A stretch of 64,000 bases of DNA, taken from a virus. The DNA is taken from positions 1-64,000 of the IMG/VR virus record IMGVR_UViG_3300043571_000313; one strand, written 5' to 3'. Positions 23,801 to 29,000 of this stretch are shown piece after piece. The position numbers were made by a program, and so were the translations under genes. Each line of letters begins with the position of its first letter. Position 1 is the stretch's first letter. The notes beneath the pieces are model-generated. The model had not been told where the DNA came from. It saw only the letters and a program-made list of their open reading frames with translations, and ran no database searches.

Positions 23801-24022
23801 TCCGAGGTGGAGATGGGCAAACTCATGTCGACTCTTGACGACACAGGGAAGCAGGCGGTTCAGCAGGCACTCGCCTTGTTCGAATCCTTCACTGAGTTAA
23901 TCGAGCCGAACCCAATCATCCAGCGAATCAAGCAGCAGCAGGCGGCACAAATGCGAGCGGCGCAGCCACTCACCATTGAGCAGCTGCGCCGCCGTGCGGC
24001 ATCAGGTGTGATGGGTTACTGA
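14828..24022 (+). CDS. giant internal virion/polyvalent protein with a zincin-like HExxH motif
   Basis: 3064 aa; N-terminal Gly/Ala membrane-like region (EAGTEAFQE), Pro-rich linkers, LIHEAGHA...WEE, helical C-terminus. Confidence 0.7.
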   Translation: MSGSTNSLVQGYRAYLERSGKVDLRTDTELTVELGDLLRSKGNDAFDLKASEYPDFREQYLTATQSTDRGVIGEVAAGARRGARSLAGTAMGAVALGLDAVGANETAKSLATKAEEFASGGEDNAATVGRMKDVIDVEGGVRYAAGKIGEAVPSIAEALVTATIGATAGTAAAPGPGTAGGAAAGFIGKQAVKQMIRKGVATRILGKDVTEAALETALKDAANATLRTAFVNESRALAARMGAGAVGAINSLGLSSGEIYNETGDVATSLGAGAIAAIPDTILPTYIVGKFFRGAASADDVARAGGFMKRLATEAAKTMPIEAGTEAFQELVNIAAVKFNKGEPATLDAADLERIKEAAVGGLAGGLVGAPIAAAPAPNAAIEARRAAATGTTPPPPGTPVTPPPPPAPKTPTRGEVVAKWVAAAPDLQDARINALLRVTRTKDEDQELEVLNALVSQRPPAVAATATPPPPAPSPASTATPAPAASNWLTEQIDRDAATADRLGWTQKIGDMAAQRMTARQIRDALPYRENGIDQMDAMSIVLSARNKLKIPSQEERVEFEEWIKARQQTASAPAASMGTPPAAPAPSAVGAAGATVTPLVSAPTPPPPPPVVAPAPAPKPPTAAELTDRINSANRRFGTIISRVPTLDFAAAKTALEAISTSPTDLANAVQKFEASVETLETLAVAEAAKIAAGTAQKRQEVATSRAKNLAEKLDAQVAAAADRARKRAEKNAKILAKEAEAPAPPAPAPPGFRLATDQEMSLPLPLEGQFVQTASGVIFREGEQPVGEAVQPVRVAVYQKGERFLTQRQYEAEDVAPVAEPVVTPTVPAPADLRAEQDEAESEDDAAATEQMRAMGRFADALLAKQGKKAAEVVPPPTPADDLKTRLDAVLNPPVEVAPLSFGKIAAMDSELNTQGASDNSGTRTKSRVAYAIRDDRDTSIPEDQRPVYLKGTVDYSKAEGLLRVGPGATKGVGKAVFAMGKNRGKPAERTKTIEPGGSQQVLLEDLAKAGFVPYLRIVFDGEPAAISRHFANMAELDAAIAKTEKVPAATTAVNVAAGRSTLRSDIITTGDAAMTVAESALAPEDAANEQSPAAALAEAMTKVMDGMTTTMLDSIVRRAAKAKASIEATIEGMPAFGRELLKKVMVETDATPAMVVTYVRSSLPADTEIPAGPGTFSLDAKKATTSKTTAAPALKGFDKVPLAALEKLYEVITRSPKNLDGNFDGKELSSGWLDRLNILFERTGMASFDEFVATLDKLSKAAKSPTQFAAALKGKPMYESQEFTVPLPPVGHFEALVQRLRNNGFDVEVIQRELGMTLAGMYRGGKIFVALEDMANANLAGLRRLIHEAGHAVIDQESMQTREDLQRAVESTMSEADNGAIFKAALNAGKDWEEMLVDTTAIKLAEEGFGEKSATIAEAIWRTVKDVYYRVGMAMLRALGVDPSPESVLAWWDNNMRRHLGGDFDFRFTDLFRPHVERNAERVSRFTIADGQDIPDLLDPITGRVTQAEVVPDTVEAAEWNLKFMKDGVAGADMDYTEAMARVTAAAWNEAMPVIQRLKAELLPAGTDDQFWAIFSPSKDTPQKIVEEMEKRVPGAATAKVGGEKMTDAMNSRARAKAFRIITGLARAARKRAAGSEAAITRESDAIVAKAEQLNRADRELRDATAMDAVFNDALRDLIKELSVGIDSGPDTAFAAGKLAGAIREIERLTDKDAIPAEYQNVFKRLLDSGGVSVFDYLSAIARLKLPLGSMKVPDIMKAISENAASDSRLASLNDQRPLAVALSTLARNSTREMDLLQLRSLKDAAEYTSIRAELDEIQVANETRLEEIAKGIDAKAESLSLRDRLKQAYVEARRDFNRSRKTIQRQQELVIQRKRFADVMEERATELSRDVGSFSFWEAHDGAQYRAMTRGDDGKWTATERTLRMVGDEITEQHEQVSHDMAMNRLWLNMHKDQAGSRLYEEVKRQTWELTKLDFAKNYEAATRFRMDRWLQPLGQKFAGTGELAGTKIKQMLIAWQSVMFQHSDQVDAAARRWTKALKDASKDAGYTNEKRFFDEVVNPAIYAIESDPGRDEAGALRTARKVAARIIPPAYTVGPNFNLKLERLLRAHKEVSELIVQIAEKNGVYVNDSRMRDPLTGKAGMLRHAIKYGWFTSTRRLRGEAVRILTKDMHQAGWRDDTFTDLPETAELDKLVGKHFTPTIIKGFVEPFVRKPGREVFFGAKDANDKPTYVSQLTAQELWEGAGGDVMKFIDAMYDRTNPLDNRDALPEYRRSILARFNQLYTMESKLAAKTESGGGLDHMTQKSHRVMDSRTNDLIPPEHFQYDIFSPIDARRALTEVAFHAAFGRDGVALDKAMIDLDKGLNLSADRYKMIPEGTRKEKEAYAKEQGWDFKKLERAADDRKAVSAWKAKLVKHFTGSEAVVGDARTMLELAQLNVALLLNQPKSALWNLLSILEYPLVYRGLNRSSVRATATAARVLAREITGSFLKVAGVNLTQKFEYANEIAEIVERKETERLDFGTLMADIGPDGRFTQGGVGNTVTEVSRGIQTAMRKGFKGNNALWAPFNFISHKADTAIATANVQAFEMMVKRAIDYFERHPEARDNPAFRLTSDHLGMSEGWFSEAGTFDYFRTRAMEYGLGSLEDIAREAAIGRDSGGKLLTRDQALGVAMMALNEISLHAGVNSRLIEMIDNPILRFGGLMLGWPLSKVNQINDAFKDADGKATLASAMRAVGIMAAWTLPAGLAYSLMVDEYDDKLLNKKSNLRSIDPIAITPVVGPLLAAASDSGNILGMLERLARAGTYGIVGDMVNSFTNVVDPSSGQRDFDLNSRVLVFNQFANIRDVFRNLIHQDGEMTYQSTGRPLISAMGGGGLLQAMQLVNARLGLTNAEAAVTNRINVNNYLRAAGRAVDIELRGGTARSLPTARSVWLNQMQVMALSNDRVGFAEAYRNAVDVARRQGEPDPEAKVLEDFKSRHPLSSVFRTKPSEVEMGKLMSTLDDTGKQAVQQALALFESFTELIEPNPIIQRIKQQQAAQMRAAQPLTIEQLRRRAASGVMGY

Positions 24023-24023
24023 G

Positions 24024-25112
24024 TCAGCGGTGCACGTAGCCCTCGGTTACGGCTTCCGAAGTGCGCGAGTGGCCAAGCAGCCGGCCGATCTGCTCGATGG
24101 TCTTACCCGCCTTCTCCATGCGGGTGGCGAACGAATGGCGCAGGCAGTGGAACGACTTCCCCTCGATGCCGAGGTCGGCTAGTATGCGGGCGTAGTAAAC
24201 GCTGTGCCGTGCGCGCCTCGCGGGGTCGAGGGCTATCGCGCGCTCATCAGGGAAGACGTACTTCGGGTCGAGGCATTCAGCCATCATGTCGAAGAAGATT
24301 CCGCGCAGCTCGCCGCCGCCGAGAAGCGGGTCGTCGATCGGCAGCGCCACCCGCGCCCCACTCTTCCGCGTCCAGACGACGATCTCATCGGGCATGATGC
24401 TGCCCCACTCCAGGCACGCGCAGTCCGACAGGCGCAGCCCCGCCCAATAGGACAGCGCCGTCCACCACTTCCACTTGCCGGTCGTGTGCGCCATGATGTG
24501 CTTGAACTCGCGCTCGCTGAACGGCACGCGCCGGACCGGCTCCTTCTGCTCATGCGAAAGATCGTTGAGCCGGACCCTAACCAGCTTTGATGGGTTGCCG
24601 GCGTAGTACGCCTTCGCCGTGACGAAGTCGAAGAACGATCGGATGGATGCGAGGCGCACGTCCCGGTTGCTGGCCGTCGTCGTGTCCTTCTTGGAGTTTA
24701 CGAATCCATCGAGGTGCTCGAAGGTGAGGCGGGTGACCGGCCACTTCGATGCGTCGTTGGCCTTGACCAGGTGGCGCAGCACGAGCTCTTGCGTGCGCAC
24801 CGTGTTGGGCGCGGCGTTCGTCTTGCGCCATACTACCCACTCGGCGATCGCCTGATCGAGCGACACCTTGCGGCCGGCCATGATGGCAGTGAGGGCTTCA
24901 GCAGTGAGCGCACGAGCACGCGCCGCCATCTCCATCTCCAGCACCTTCGACTGCACGACGACCTCGCGCGCCTTCTCGATGGTGGATTGCTTTGTCGATC
25001 GCGTGTGCGACTTGCCCTGCGCGTCGAGGAACTTGACGTGATAGATGCCCGACTCCTGATCGCGGGTCAGGTGGGCATCGAGTTCGGCTTTGGTTGGCAC
25101 GCCGTAACCCAT
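24024..25112 (-). CDS. int: tyrosine recombinase/phage integrase
   Basis: Catalytic residues GLRLSD, HCLRHSFAT, LLGH and terminal Y (EGYVH); arm-binding-like N-terminus. Start is probably ATG 25112 or 25130, not 25493. Confidence 0.9.
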   Translation of the reverse strand: MGYGVPTKAELDAHLTRDQESGIYHVKFLDAQGKSHTRSTKQSTIEKAREVVVQSKVLEMEMAARARALTAEALTAIMAGRKVSLDQAIAEWVVWRKTNAAPNTVRTQELVLRHLVKANDASKWPVTRLTFEHLDGFVNSKKDTTTASNRDVRLASIRSFFDFVTAKAYYAGNPSKLVRVRLNDLSHEQKEPVRRVPFSEREFKHIMAHTTGKWKWWTALSYWAGLRLSDCACLEWGSIMPDEIVVWTRKSGARVALPIDDPLLGGGELRGIFFDMMAECLDPKYVFPDERAIALDPARRARHSVYYARILADLGIEGKSFHCLRHSFATRMEKAGKTIEQIGRLLGHSRTSEAVTEGYVHR

Positions 25113-25127
25113 GCCATGTGGTGACTT

Positions 25128-25146
25128 CATTTTGAAGATTAAAATG
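25128..25146. promoter_or_regulatory. palindromic operator-like site CATTTT-N7-AAAATG upstream of int
   Basis: CATTTT GAAGATT AAAATG; same geometry at 35660 and degenerate copies at 54917 and 58032. Confidence 0.5.
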
Positions 25147-25160
25147 TGGGTGCTTGCCCG

Positions 25161-25213
25161 GCCGAACGAGTCGCCGGAGCGGACGCTACGCGCCGCTCGG
25201 CTTGGTGTTCGGC
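25161..25213 (+). mobile_element. attC: integron attC-like recombination site 1 (53 bp)
   Basis: R'' GCCGAAC, 5-nt spacer, L'' GCCGGAGC (extra G), GGaCGC-TAC-GCGCC stem (extra A), L' GCTCGGC, 5-nt spacer, R' GTTCGGC. Confidence 0.85.
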
Positions 25214-25536
25214 CGATAGTGTTCCGTCCCGGTGGTTGCAAATCCGTATCGTTTCCCGGTCGGGTCCGGGAGCAGTTGGCAGTTGGCGATGACATCACAC
25301 ACCAGCGTCCGCTCCGGGTCGCGCATGTGCTTCTGCATCTGCGATAGCATGTCCACGCGCCTTCGATTCCAGTCTGCGGAGTGCGTGAGCTTGCGGCAGT
25401 GCTCCACCAGTTCGTCCTGCATGAGCTTTCCGGTCGGGTCGCCCACGGCAGCGCGAATGTCCGCCAAAAGGCCCAACAAGGCGGTCGAGCCAACAGCCGC
25501 CTCGCGTTTCCGTTTCGTTGCGTTCCGGTTCTTCAT
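25186..25536 (-). CDS. cassette-borne hypothetical protein A
   Basis: 116 aa; ATG in the attC2 loop, TAG in the attC1 loop; N- and C-termini encoded by attC arms. Confidence 0.7.
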   Translation of the reverse strand: MKNRNATKRKREAAVGSTALLGLLADIRAAVGDPTGKLMQDELVEHCRKLTHSADWNRRRVDMLSQMQKHMRDPERTLVCDVIANCQLLPDPTGKRYGFATTGTEHYRPNTKPSGA

Positions 25537-25596
25537 ACACTTTTTCTGTCGGCCACGCCCGCTGTCGGCGGCTGTGGCTCACCTTGGTCGTTCGGC
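25471..25596 (+). mobile_element. attC: integron attC-like recombination site 2 (126 bp)
   Basis: R'' GCCCAAC, AAGGC, L'' GGTCGAGC (extra C), CAACAGCCGC (extra A) ... GCGGCTGTG, L' GCTCACC, TTGGTC, R' GTTCGGC. Confidence 0.9.
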
Positions 25597-25835
25597 AATC
25601 GCATCGCGTGAGCAATTTCGTGCGCAGAATAATCGCTTGCCCGATCACTGCCACCCCCACCTTCAAGTCCGTGCTTTTTGCAAAAACGATCGTACTCGTA
25701 ATCAGAAATGACCGGACGGCACATCACGTAATATAAATACTGATGCGCTCGCATCGTTAAAAATGGCGAACAAGGCGCCACAGCCAAGCCGGACGGCCGC
25801 CCGTCCTTGGTCGCTTCGGTTTCAGGTGTCTTCAT
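25533..25835 (-). CDS. cassette-borne protein B, similar to domain Ia of NAD+-dependent DNA ligase
   Basis: ATG 25835 with GGAG RBS in attC3; HQYLYYVMCRPVISDYEYD matches the LigA Ia motif HxYxYY...P.ISDxEYD; TGA in the attC2 loop. Confidence 0.7.
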   Translation of the reverse strand: MKTPETEATKDGRPSGLAVAPCSPFLTMRAHQYLYYVMCRPVISDYEYDRFCKKHGLEGGGGSDRASDYSAHEIAHAMRLPNDQGEPQPPTAGVADRKSV

Positions 25836-25871
25836 GATTTTTCTCCGGCTGGCTGATCTTTGGAGTTGCTG
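25765..25871 (+). mobile_element. attC: integron attC-like recombination site 3 (107 bp, more degenerate)
   Basis: R'' GGCGAAC, AAGGC, L'' GCCACAGC, CAAGCCGGA (extra A) ... TCCGGCTG, L' GCTGATC, TTTGGA, R' GTTGCTG. Confidence 0.7.
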
Positions 25872-26077
25872 CCAAGCGGCGACTGATTCACCCCACTCCA
25901 AAAGGACTGGTCATTCAGCGCGTTCGCGACAGCCTTACATGCCTCCTCGCGGGTCATGCCTTTTGCGATACAAGCCTCGATGGCTGACTGTGCATCGTCA
26001 TAAAGCATCTTGCCCACTTGCGCCGGGGTGAGGCCGCAGATTGTGCTCTGAGTTAGGATGGCTTTTTTCTTTTCCAT
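25832..26077 (-). CDS. hypothetical protein C, ending inside attC3
   Basis: 81 aa; C-terminus SNSKDQPAGEKS is encoded by the attC3 arm; TGA overlaps the ATG of gene B. Confidence 0.6.
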   Translation of the reverse strand: MEKKKAILTQSTICGLTPAQVGKMLYDDAQSAIEACIAKGMTREEACKAVANALNDQSFWSGVNQSPLGSNSKDQPAGEKS

Positions 26078-26089
26078 AAGAGGGCAATG

Positions 26090-29000
26090 TTACGCCGCCA
26101 CCTCGATGACTGGCGCGAGGACCGGACGGTTGGCAATGATGAGCTGCTTGCGCAGTTCAATCCACTGCGACTCGCACTCCGACTCAGAGAGGACGTCGCC
26201 GTCCTCGGCCTTGAAGTTGACGATGTGCTCGGCAAGAACCTCGCTCGCGTCGAGGGTCTTGAAGTCCCGAGGCACCCGCTTCCCATGCAGGCACAGCGTC
26301 GCGGCATCCTGCTTCAGCGCGACCCGATCGAACAGCAGTTCCTCGATGGAGTTCTGATGCAGGACGCACCAGATCTTCACCGGCTTCGGCGAGGTCAGAC
26401 GCCACACTCGACCCTGTGCCTGGTTGAGCGTGCCATAGCTCCACTCGAGCGAGCCAACGATGAGGTTCGGGCATTGGTCGAAGCTGTGCCCTTGGGCGCA
26501 CTTGATGCCCATGAGCATGACCCGAGCGTCGCCCTTCTTGAAGCGGTTCGCCTCGGCCGCATGCAGGTCCGGCCGGACGGTGGAGTCGATGCGGGCAATC
26601 GGGATCTTGGCGTTCGCCAGGCGGGATGCCAGCTCCGACGACTGGCCGACGCGCGCCGACACCACCACGACCTGCTCGCCGCGCTTCAGGCAATCGCGCA
26701 CCAGCTGCAGGATGGTGATGGTCTTGTGATTGAAGTTGGATTTGCACATGTCCCTCGTGTAGTCGAGGGACGCTGGCGAGGCGCAGCACCCACGCAGCCG
26801 TGACGACTGGACGCGGGCAATGGTCAGCGCGCTCTTGAACTCGGTCAGGTAGTTGCGCCGCTCCAGCCAGAACTGATACAGCTTCGACTGCTCCTTGCCC
26901 ATGGCGACGCGGACGTCGATGACCTCGCACGGCTGCAGGTTCGGGTTGCAATCCTTCTTGCTGATGTAGGCGAGCGTGGGCTTGAGCAGCTTCAGCAGGC
27001 GGGCTGGCGAACTGATGACCGGCGAGTGCTTGGTCCCGGTGTTGCGCCAGCCGCGCTTGCCCCGGGCCTTCGCCTTCCACTGTGCAGTCAGATCCTCCTC
27101 GACGGAGAGGAATGTCGAGTTGAACCGGCCGATCTCGTCGACGGCGTAGGGCCAGGCCGCATTGCGCATCTTGCCCTTGTGCCAGTCTTTCACGCACAGC
27201 CATCCCATGAGGGAGAAGATATTCGAGATGACATTGGGGATCGGTGTCGCCGTGAGGGCGAAGCGATACTTGGGCTGCAGGCGGAACAGGTTCTTTGTTA
27301 CCTGCGCCTCTGCGTTACAGTAGAGGTGCGCCTCATCGCAGATGACCATGTCCCACGCATCGCCGTGGGTGGAGGCGACGATCGTGGCGAGCGACGGCAG
27401 GCCGATGCAGCGAATGCCGTGCTTGTTGCCCGCGCCGACGTTGCGGCAGAACTGCTCCTCGACCGGGCGCTTCTCGTCATACTTGAGGTTGAAGCGCTCG
27501 CAGAACTTCTTCTCCGCAACCCGATCCCAGCTTTCGGGAAGATGCTCGAAGCCACCGTTGCTGAAGTAGGCCTGCGGGTAGGTGATGTAGATGCCGGGCG
27601 GGAGTTCGCCGGCGTTGGCATGGAGGATGGCGTACCAATCCTCGGCGCTGAAGAGCTGGAAGACCGGCTCGCCGGGAGCGAAGCGCTGGATCTCGGACAC
27701 CCACTGCGATGCTTGATAGTCGATCTCCTCATCCTCCTCGGTGGAGCGCATCGTACCCTGCGGTGCGATCAGCAGCGTGCGCTTCGGAGACTTGAGGGCG
27801 ATGAGCGTCAGGGCGCCGAGCGACTTGCCGGTCCCCGTCTCGGCTGCGACCAGCCCGTAATCCTTGCACGCCATGCGAGCGTAGAAGTCCAGCTGGCCGG
27901 GGAAGTAGGTAAACCCAGCCATCATCTCATTGAACCGCATCGCGTTCTTGTTGCGCTCGAACTGATCGACCTCGACCTCGGCGATCGTCGGGACGAACGG
28001 CTTGTCGAAGAGAGTCCACAGCATGTCCTCGGGGTGCTGCCAGCTCATGCCTTCGGCCGGCCGATCCATGAACCGATGCACGCGGCGGTGATCGTCGGTC
28101 ACCTCGATGTAGCGATCCTCGCCGGACAGCCGGCACTCGTGATCCTCGATCTCCGTGGTGTCCTCGTCCTCGTCGTAGTAGATCTTCTTGCGGGTGAACT
28201 TCTCCGTGAAGGTGTAGGTCCCGGTGCGAATCTCGTACCGCTTCCCGACCGTGAGCTTGATGATGCCGGCCTCGTGCGCGGCCTTGCACTTCAGCGCCTC
28301 CTCCTCGTCGGCGTAGGCAACGAGCTCGAAGTCCGTGACCGGCATGATGGGACACGCCATCGAGGCGACCTCAGCCAGGGCGGCGGCGATAGCCTTGCGC
28401 GCCTCGGGCTGGATCGTGTAGATGCCGTCGTTGACGAACTGATGCAGCAGCTTCCGCGTCTCCTTCTCCGTGGTCAGCGTGAGCGGGTGGCACCCATTGA
28501 TGCGGTGCAGCCGGACGATCTCGTCGTCCTTGATCTTCACCTGTGCACGGGTGCTCAGGTAGGTGCGAAGCGCGCCGTCCTTGCCGAGGTAGATATTAAA
28601 CTTCGGCCGGTCGAGGTGTTCTTCCTTGATGATCTTGGACAGGTTATTCCAGTCGAGGTAAAGCGAGTAGTGCTCAGTGTAGGGTGAGTACCAGTACGGC
28701 TGGCCGGACACCTGATGCAGGTTGCTCTTGATCGTGCGTCCGTACTCGAAGAGCTGTTGCTGATCCGGCATGTGGTCCCACACCTTCTGATTGCGCGGCC
28801 GGCCGACGATGTTGCCGAAGTGCACGATGCCGAGCTCGACATCGCAGTTCTCCCAGATGCCACCGGCGGGGAACCGCTGGTAGAGGTACACCCACGGGTC
28901 ATCCTGAATGCCGAGCTTCTCAATCGTCTTGGCGTTGGAGATGAGGAAGCCGCAGCCGTTGTTCGCGAGCCGCTTCTTGATCATCTGCCACGTCCACTCG

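Follow-up and report, generated by a model that had tools for sequence, protein, structure and literature searches.

In the accepted picture of integrons, each cassette consists of a promoterless gene followed by its attC site, and the cassettes are read from one promoter located beside the integrase. The bottom strand of attC has been described (Nivina et al. 2016, PMC5027507) as a 5'-RYYYAAC box (R', cut between AA and C, a point written AA/C from here on), followed by a spacer, a stem and a variable loop, after which the stem continues with extrahelical bases near L'', a second spacer and the terminal box GTTRRRY-3' (R''). In phages, clusters of attC sites lacking integron integrases (CALINs) and a few integrons have been published, their cassettes being described as oriented like those of bacterial arrays (Qi et al. 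2023, PMC9892861). At attI1, the short frame ORF-11/ORF-18 extends over the recombination point and ends at a stop codon provided by the inserted cassette, with translation of the next gene coupled to it, and it has also been reported that attC hairpins in messenger RNA (mRNA) hinder ribosomes unless they are translated through (PMC8876359). The present work deals with three attC-like sites and three small genes (A, B and C) found in a 64,000-nucleotide stretch of DNA, referred to as the window, which is the first 64 kb of the 73.8-kb phage genome IMG/VR IMGVR_UViG_3300043571_000313. In all probability these are genuine integron-type attC sites, and they would form a CALIN in an early-gene operon of a lake phage, bounding two mobile cassettes, A and B, whose genes are reversed with respect to classical ones.

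The locus and its relatives share several traits with classical integrons. The sites carry the RYYYAAC and GTTRRRY boxes, an unpaired spacer, extrahelical bases in the L'' arm and a variable loop (PMC5027507); their size, 53-126 nt, falls in the classical range, with the crossover at AA/C of the bottom strand; and, where an integron integrase gene (intI) is present, it has the array on its upstream side and runs in the same direction as the bottom strand. In contrast with classical cassettes, the genes are encoded on the bottom strand and attC precedes its gene, the crossover lies within the upstream coding sequence as an in-frame Asn codon, and the genes would be expressed by reading towards intI, with a phage promoter at the opposite end of the array taking the place of the integron promoter Pc. 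As in the published phage CALINs, attC sites are clustered in the absence of intI and a DNA methyltransferase cargo is found, here in a relative (locus L030); unlike in them, there is bottom-strand coding, a fixed crossover frame and borrowed protein tails, none of which is mentioned in that study (PMC9892861). ORF-11/ORF-18 is a single small leader open reading frame (ORF) at attI, on the top strand, whereas here every cassette gene and every attC takes part, on the bottom strand and with a frame that is family-wide. No description of reversed, frame-locked cassettes was found in the full-text literature searched, which omits most subscription journals; the natural deletion and the classical integron used as an internal control, both presented below, are new here.

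The three sites of the window

The sites were searched for with R1, a covariance model trained on 21 sites, all from contigs other than the window, the structure of which was written by hand from single-sequence folds (RNAalifold predicted no structure on the MAFFT alignment A2). Over the 64-kb window, R1 gave exactly three matches, all of them on the minus strand and at the positions where an earlier reading of the letters alone (the sequence-only reading) had placed attC sites, and well past what chance would give. These sites, the genes that they join and the resulting cassettes are the following:

attC1: 25161..25213, minus strand, 53 nt; R1 score 44.5 bits, E 4e-8
attC2: 25471..25596, minus strand, 126 nt; R1 score 63.5 bits, E 2e-12
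attC3: 25765..25869, minus strand, 105 nt; R1 score 23.7 bits, E 2e-3 in the window-only search
Gene A: 25536-25186, minus strand, 116 aa; core from LLG.. to ..RPN, tail TKPSGA and stop encoded by attC1
Gene B: 25835-25533, minus strand, 100 aa; tail DQGEPQPPTAGVADRKSV and stop encoded by attC2 of cassette A
Gene C: 26077-25832, minus strand, 81 aa; orphan ORF and fixed flank; the R' box of attC3 comes from its end, ..GSN
Cassette A: 25208..25590, minus strand, 383 bp, between the AA/C crossovers of attC2 and attC1; gene B ends here with its tail and stop, and gene A then begins, with start, leader and core as far as ..RPN
Cassette B: 25591..25865, minus strand, 275 bp; gene C ends here with its tail and stop, and gene B then begins, with start, leader and core as far as ..LPN

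The boxes of attC1, GCCGAAC and GTTCGGC, are complementary at 7/7 positions and are separated by unpaired spacers of 5 and 5 nt from a 12-bp stem, which has two bulged bases in its 3' arm and a 3-nt loop in which the TAG of gene A is found (25188-25186). As single-stranded DNA this site folds with -24.4 kcal/mol (z -4.7), and its end lies 30 bp from the start of the phage integrase gene. In attC2, the R' box GCCGAAC is followed by a 6-nt spacer, a 17-bp stem and a loop with an ATGA in which gene B stops and gene A starts (25536-25533; TCAT on the plus strand), after which come a 3' arm with extrahelical T and G, a 5-nt spacer and the R'' box GTTGGGC, the two boxes being complementary at 6/7 positions. 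The bulged G is located three pairs in from the 5-nt spacer and the T six pairs further, matching the positions of G16 and T23 of attCaadA7. The third site, attC3, has GCAGCAAC as its R' box and GTTCGCC as its R'' box, a stem of 12-13 bp with an extra T in the 3' arm, and a loop containing GGAG (25846-25843, minus strand), 7 nt and then a second ATGA (25835-25832), which is the stop of gene C and the start of gene B. It has in common with attC2 a 28-nt direct repeat, 75% identical (repeat family D1), and it was missed by a simple box-and-stem finder applied before R1. No attC was found upstream of gene C in the R1 search of the window.

The three sites are imperfect inverted repeats whose ends are of the RYYYAAC and GTTRRRY type, with unpaired central spacers of 5-6 nt and 5 nt, and in 3/3 the extrahelical bases are confined to the L'' side, bulging from the 3' arm of the minus strand. 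The minus-strand AAC is an in-frame Asn codon at 25209-25207 (RPN), 25592-25590 (LPN) and 25867-25865 (SN), with distances of 383 and 275 from one AAC to the next, each of them 2 mod 3. The ATGA overlaps, the GGAG, the TAG in the loop, the Asn codons and this spacing had all been pointed out in the sequence-only reading, and all are present as it gave them.

A perfect 14-nt inverted repeat is also found in this region, between 25174-25187 (the 3' arm of attC1, in sense orientation) and 25304-25317, a segment inside gene A, 116 nt from the attC1 arm, that codes for DPERTL. It matches better than the internal pairing of attC1, and about 0.003 such pairs would be expected by chance in 1.2 kb.

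Structure and strand of the related sites

Around 110 related loci were fetched from viral, metagenome and genome collections via homologues of gene A. In the 554 kb that they comprise, R1 gave 121 matches, 118 of which are on the strand that encodes the gene A module. When 90 distinct sites were aligned, 85.5% of the cells were paired (59.8% in shuffles, 28-45% in slid controls), compensatory cells numbered 527 (189 in shuffles), and all 17 stem pairs changed on both sides, with a covariation score of 0.571 against 0.162 in shuffles; the alignment having been fitted to the R1 model, these figures lean somewhat towards the structure. The AAC and GTT are near-invariant in the 90 sites, and the structure is conserved while the sequence varies, the terminal loop being variable.

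With regard to the strand, 49 of the 52 foldable non-redundant related sites have their bulged bases in the 3' arm of the sense strand, and such 3'-arm bulges identify the coding strand as the bottom strand of attC. The assignment of the minus, coding strand to the attC bottom strand, already made in the sequence-only reading, is borne out by these bulges and by the R1 matches. It is thereby very likely that the strand that folds and recombines is the coding one, the reverse of what occurs in classical cassettes.

The reading frame at the crossover

The frame was analysed on 91 R1 matches with AAC, which were merged where the 150 nt upstream were at least 70% identical, giving 76 junctions, 59 of them with at least 50 open codons upstream. 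The AAC is in frame as an Asn codon in 51 of these 59 non-redundant junctions (51/55 without the classical integron loci), while for the other AAC triplets of the same ORFs the in-frame fraction is 0.36 (p = 2e-15). An in-frame excess over one third, the check that had been put forward together with the idea of a fixed crossover codon, is therefore what the relatives display. Moreover, a frame-0 stop occurs within the site in 50 of the 51 in-frame junctions, compared with 28-29/51 for the other two frames. The borrowed tails have a median length of 8 residues, and the residue ahead of the Asn is Pro in 24/51, a frequent occurrence that follows from the RYYYAAC box.

As for the beginning of the next gene, an NTGA stop/start overlap is found in 18 of 43 cases, and in approximately 30/43 the start falls between -17 and +12 nt from the stop, the full spread being -35 to +41 nt. 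The 4-nt overlap pointed out in attC2 and attC3 is thus common but not universal. It had also been proposed that any rearrangement leaves every gene terminated and coupled; termination is upheld by the frame-0 stops, but coupling applies only where stop and start overlap. A rule by which cassette length would be 2 mod 3 had to be rejected, since lengths are unconstrained in relatives (13, 10 and 9 cassettes for remainders 2, 0 and 1), and the lengths observed in the window follow from its ATGA joints.

Cassette boundaries and a natural deletion

The boundaries of the cassettes can be followed by comparing relatives. Loci L001 and L002 have the same sequence down to the ..AGGCCC AAC that closes the gene A homologue; past this point their similarity is lost at once. 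In nine junctions located ahead of gene A relatives, the sequence before the AAC is unrelated, and six of the nine (L005, L009, L030, L036, L050 and L058) are near-identical from a few bases past the AAC. Variation in the site ahead of gene A follows that of the gene itself, unlike variation in the site behind it. In alignment A1, the gene A relatives are conserved up to RPN, with unrelated tails beyond, and many small genes of the related loci end in Pro/Ser-Asn plus a short variable tail. These breaks at AAC imply that attC moves with the gene that follows it, and that a gene receives its tail and stop from the cassette that comes next. They agree with the earlier proposals that the crossover is the in-frame Asn codon, that one arm provides the C-terminal tail and stop of the preceding gene, and that the N-terminal leader of the following gene is encoded by the 3' arm of its site.

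Further break points, those of P0121 and of P0145-P0148, were placed at the protein level only. The core of P0121, a relative of gene B, is 96% identical to that of gene B, with another tail past the Asn, an instance of the swapped tails that had been anticipated among homologues. P0145, P0147 and P0148 have the same 23-residue leader as gene B, which reaches to the R'' box, and continue with unrelated cores. The exact 23-nt leader pattern had no match in viral_contigs.

A recombined form of the locus is also found in nature. Contigs of four lake metagenome runs were aligned to 24400-26800. In run X6, a 53-nt contig joins 25206 to 25590, skipping 383 bp, with GTTCGGC common to both sides; a length of 53 nt is the expected output of a de Bruijn graph of 31-mers for a new joint over a 7-nt repeat. 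In run X7, which belongs to a different study, the first 10 nt of a 937-nt contig correspond to 25197-25206 and the contig then continues at 25590. The undeleted form is also represented among the contigs of both runs. The joint corresponds to the precise removal of cassette A, with the R' boxes of attC1 and attC2 as its limits. When the deletion is simulated, gene B acquires the end ..MRLPNTKPSGA followed by a stop, and the ..LPNTKPSGA terminus forecast from the letters for such an event thus has its joint in two public data sets. Both the homology breaks and the 383-bp deletion place boundaries and recombination at AA/C of the R' box.

Relatives with an integron integrase and a classical control

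Loci L004 and L030 belong to one viral contig of 56.8 kb, which encodes an integron integrase (IntI; TIGR02249, 280.7 bits, cut-off 265). At least 12 sites are found in L030, upstream of the integrase and co-oriented with it, and its bottom-strand ORFs, which end in sites, have Pfam matches above cut-offs to Dam, N6_N4_Mtase, Methyltransf_24 and HTH_3. IntI adjoins the arrays in L030, L031, L111 and L109, with a degraded copy in L032, and an IntI gene or remnant is found in 6 distinct contigs among the approximately 110 loci.

Several features of these relatives may be described in their own right. The region L030:2237-8729 holds three DNA methyltransferase genes (Methyltransf_24, N6_N4_Mtase and Dam) and HTH_3 as reversed cassettes, a set that is compatible with an anti-restriction cargo. 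The remnant in L032 (10001-10255) consists of integrase residues 1-43 joined to 291-333, beside the site array. L111 and L112, contigs binned with Verrucomicrobia genomes, carry arrays of such sites as well, with reversed in-frame junctions and an IntI 31% identical in L111, and with mixed frames and an IntI fragment in L112; they may be prophages or wrongly binned phage contigs.

The classical layout is represented by L063, a TARA scaffold identical to part of L109, an 892-kb Panacagrimonas contig with a chromosomal integron. Here R1 finds a dozen sites, again upstream of the IntI gene and co-oriented with it, and each cassette has one ORF on the top strand (with Pfam matches to MerC and SEC-C), which is the textbook arrangement. 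Thus, when L030 and L063/L109 are compared, the sites are placed alike with respect to intI, and the orientation of the genes alone is reversed. The intI-nearest cassette of this bacterial integron (L063:5906-6222, equal to L109:7906-8222) has a gene A-like module on its bottom strand, all the other cassettes having top-strand ORFs, and, judging by its sequence, this suggests that the Panacagrimonas integron captured a reversed, phage-type cassette.

The phage and the neighbouring genes

The proteins of the window include a terminase large subunit, tail and virion proteins and helicases, which identify the source as a phage, and the stretch is present in sequencing runs from lake-water metagenomes. 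A blastn search with 24000-26100 gave no match in the phage collection. Genes C, B and A sit on the minus strand between two larger genes:

SNF2/methylase gene: 29461-26090, minus strand, 1123 aa
Tyrosine integrase gene, phage type: 25130-24024, minus strand; phrog_1, E 1.5e-32

The product of the second gene reaches 34.8 bits with TIGR02249, for which the cut-off is 265, and, on its sequence, it is an ordinary phage-type tyrosine integrase and not an integron integrase; no relatives of it were found beside arrays in other loci. The window does not contain a complete integron, understood as a TIGR02249 intI adjoining the array, with attI and Pc. Its three sites are located within 709 bp, at least two close attC sites with no nearby intI being what defines a CALIN.

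Gene A has 229 homologues, and a protein atlas search with it gave nothing. Its relatives have in common an N-terminal module of 31 residues, LLGLLADIRAAVGDPTGKLMQDELVEHCRKL (residues 20-50 of gene A in alignment A1, window region 25439-25477), which is up to 97% identical in dozens of proteins with unrelated C-terminal halves and points either to mosaicism within the cassette or to a common N-terminal domain. Gene B, a stand-alone protein with 28 homologues, resembles domain Ia of LigA, the NAD-dependent DNA ligase; its match to PF22745 (25.5 bits) is below the cut-off of 27, and this family is recorded on several of its homologues.

Proposed mechanism and alternative explanations

Taking into account what is directly supported here, namely the anatomy of the sites, their strand, the frame rule, the break points and the natural deletion, the following order can be proposed for the mRNA of a junction. 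The end of the upstream gene would run into the R' box, whose RYYYAAC would be read as ..(Pro/Ser/Leu)-Asn and would contain the crossover, AA/C; in the 5' arm of the hairpin, the upstream gene would then find a short tail and its frame-0 stop; the gene belonging to the site would have its Shine-Dalgarno sequence and start in or near the loop; and the 3' arm and R'' box would encode an N-terminal leader, followed by the core of the gene. Since one crossover frame is used by nearly all cassettes and the sites hold a frame-0 stop, any insertion, excision or reordering would leave the genes terminated, with translational coupling kept where stop and start overlap, and since the tail is encoded in the site of the next cassette, the C-terminal tail of each protein belongs to its neighbour. 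We infer that the exchanges are catalysed by an IntI, which would come from the host or from a co-infecting relative. It may also be proposed that a ribosome advancing on the 5' arm melts the hairpin and thereby couples translation, and that selection keeps the common frame. The interpretation first drawn from the letters alone is therefore largely supported, with corrections on cassette length, on the overlap and on catalysis by an integrase.

A number of observations weigh against this explanation. In 8 of the 59 junctions the AAC is out of frame. The R boxes of attC3 match poorly, with only AAC/GTT and part of the boxes being recognisable, which makes this site the weakest of the three, and the only match found for gene C was gene C itself. 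A tblastn search found no integron integrase in the 73.8-kb phage genome, which makes the cluster of the window a CALIN and means that recombination here needs an outside enzyme or another mechanism. The evidence for the deletion consists of contigs with short sides, that of X6 being a 53-nt contig with a 23-nt side and a joint class flagged as weak by the tool, and the joint lies within a 7-nt repeat (13 nt with one indel), so that replication slippage or microhomology recombination could also yield it. Finally, a bottom strand that is more stable and richer in G:T is not what the related sites have: the mean difference in stability is -0.46 kcal/mol, with 35 sites more stable and 37 less, and the 76 non-redundant sites have 0.70 G:T pairs per site on the sense (bottom) strand vs 1.53 on the antisense (top) strand, a bias that favours the top strand and runs opposite to that of classical attC sites. 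Such an excess in bottom-strand stability and G:T is a statistical tendency of classical sites and not a requirement. The C·A mismatch positions lie on the mRNA-sense strand in both layouts.

Among the alternatives, it is possible, albeit doubtful, that the common frame and the borrowed tails are mere by-products, the genes reading on to the next stop and the frame being due to ancestry or to one frame-fixing mechanism. This would fit with the unconstrained cassette lengths, with starts found anywhere from -35 to +41 nt from the stop, with L005, where a spacer one base shorter shifts the frame of the tail and the gene still ends within the site, and with the fact that frames 1 and 2 also reach a stop in the site in approximately 55% of cases. 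However, the R' box and the frame belong to the upstream cassette, and the non-redundant upstream genes are mutually unrelated (76 clusters); a frame set by 51 different unrelated genes is not explained by the ancestry of the sites, and frame 0 finds its stop in 50/51 sites, far from the approximately 55% of the other frames. It seems less likely still that the hairpins only mark modules which are exchanged without IntI, by homologous or microhomology recombination or by slippage at the boxes. The lack of an IntI in this phage, the short direct repeat adjoining the hairpin at the deletion joint and the presence of IntI or its remnants in just 6 distinct contigs would favour such an exchange, but the features that IntI reads, that is, the AAC/GTT boxes, the unpaired spacer and the canonical extrahelical bases, are kept with strong covariation; homologous recombination needs none of them, and they count against it, as do the arrays in classical position and orientation beside intI wherever it is present.

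The two remaining alternatives deny that the sites or the cassettes are what they appear to be. According to one of them, the palindromes would act at the RNA level, as terminators, processing sites or coupling hairpins, within an ordinary operon of small, overlapping phage genes, and not as sites of DNA recombination. ATGA overlaps are common in phage operons, and the stop/start overlaps and Shine-Dalgarno sequences in the loops would be in line with this idea, which is nevertheless very improbable, being already contradicted by homology that breaks exactly at AAC, by the precise natural loss of a cassette, by the co-occurrence of integron integrases with such arrays and by the same site anatomy in a classical bacterial integron, there on the non-coding strand. 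The other would take plus-strand ORFs such as 25232-25711 as the real genes, with classically oriented cassettes, and is hardly credible. The wobble positions of that ORF coincide with those of gene A, and for this reason a third-position excess cannot discriminate between them and a codon-position substitution test did not separate the two. Against it, the ORF spans the A/B junction, which relatives do not conserve; most relatives have 1-3 stops in the antisense frames of gene A, and 5/6 of those tested have an open sense frame (the single stop, in L036, rests on unverified coordinates); 229 homologues of gene A and 28 of gene B are known; and the Pfam domains of L030 lie on the bottom strand. 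The genes are hence almost certainly those of the minus strand, as the sequence-only reading maintained, and the classical arrangement, with the ORF on the top strand of attC and attC 3' of its gene, is not the one found in the window.

Returning to reversed attC cassettes in a phage CALIN as the preferred explanation, a broader proposal can be made, to which we would give an even chance of being right. An integron lineage would have adapted to phage operons by adopting reversed cassettes and a single crossover frame, so that integrase-driven shuffling inside coding sequence always yields terminated, coupled genes; its cassettes would move between phages and bacterial integrons, and the G:T asymmetry of attC would follow the coding strand and not the recombining one.

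Significance

Beside the accepted arrangement of integrons there would be a second working layout, in which the same recombination machinery is used with a reversed arrangement and recombination takes place at a codon. Such a layout shows a way for site-specific recombination to work within reading frames without breaking them, and suggests how phages swap small accessory genes, such as the methyltransferases of the relatives, in tightly packed, coupled operons. Annotation tools that assume top-strand genes will mis-call reversed cassettes, and the purpose of the strand asymmetries of attC could be tested with this layout. In sum, if this explanation is true, phages would hold a natural standard, or template, for the frame-standardised assembly of plug-in genes.

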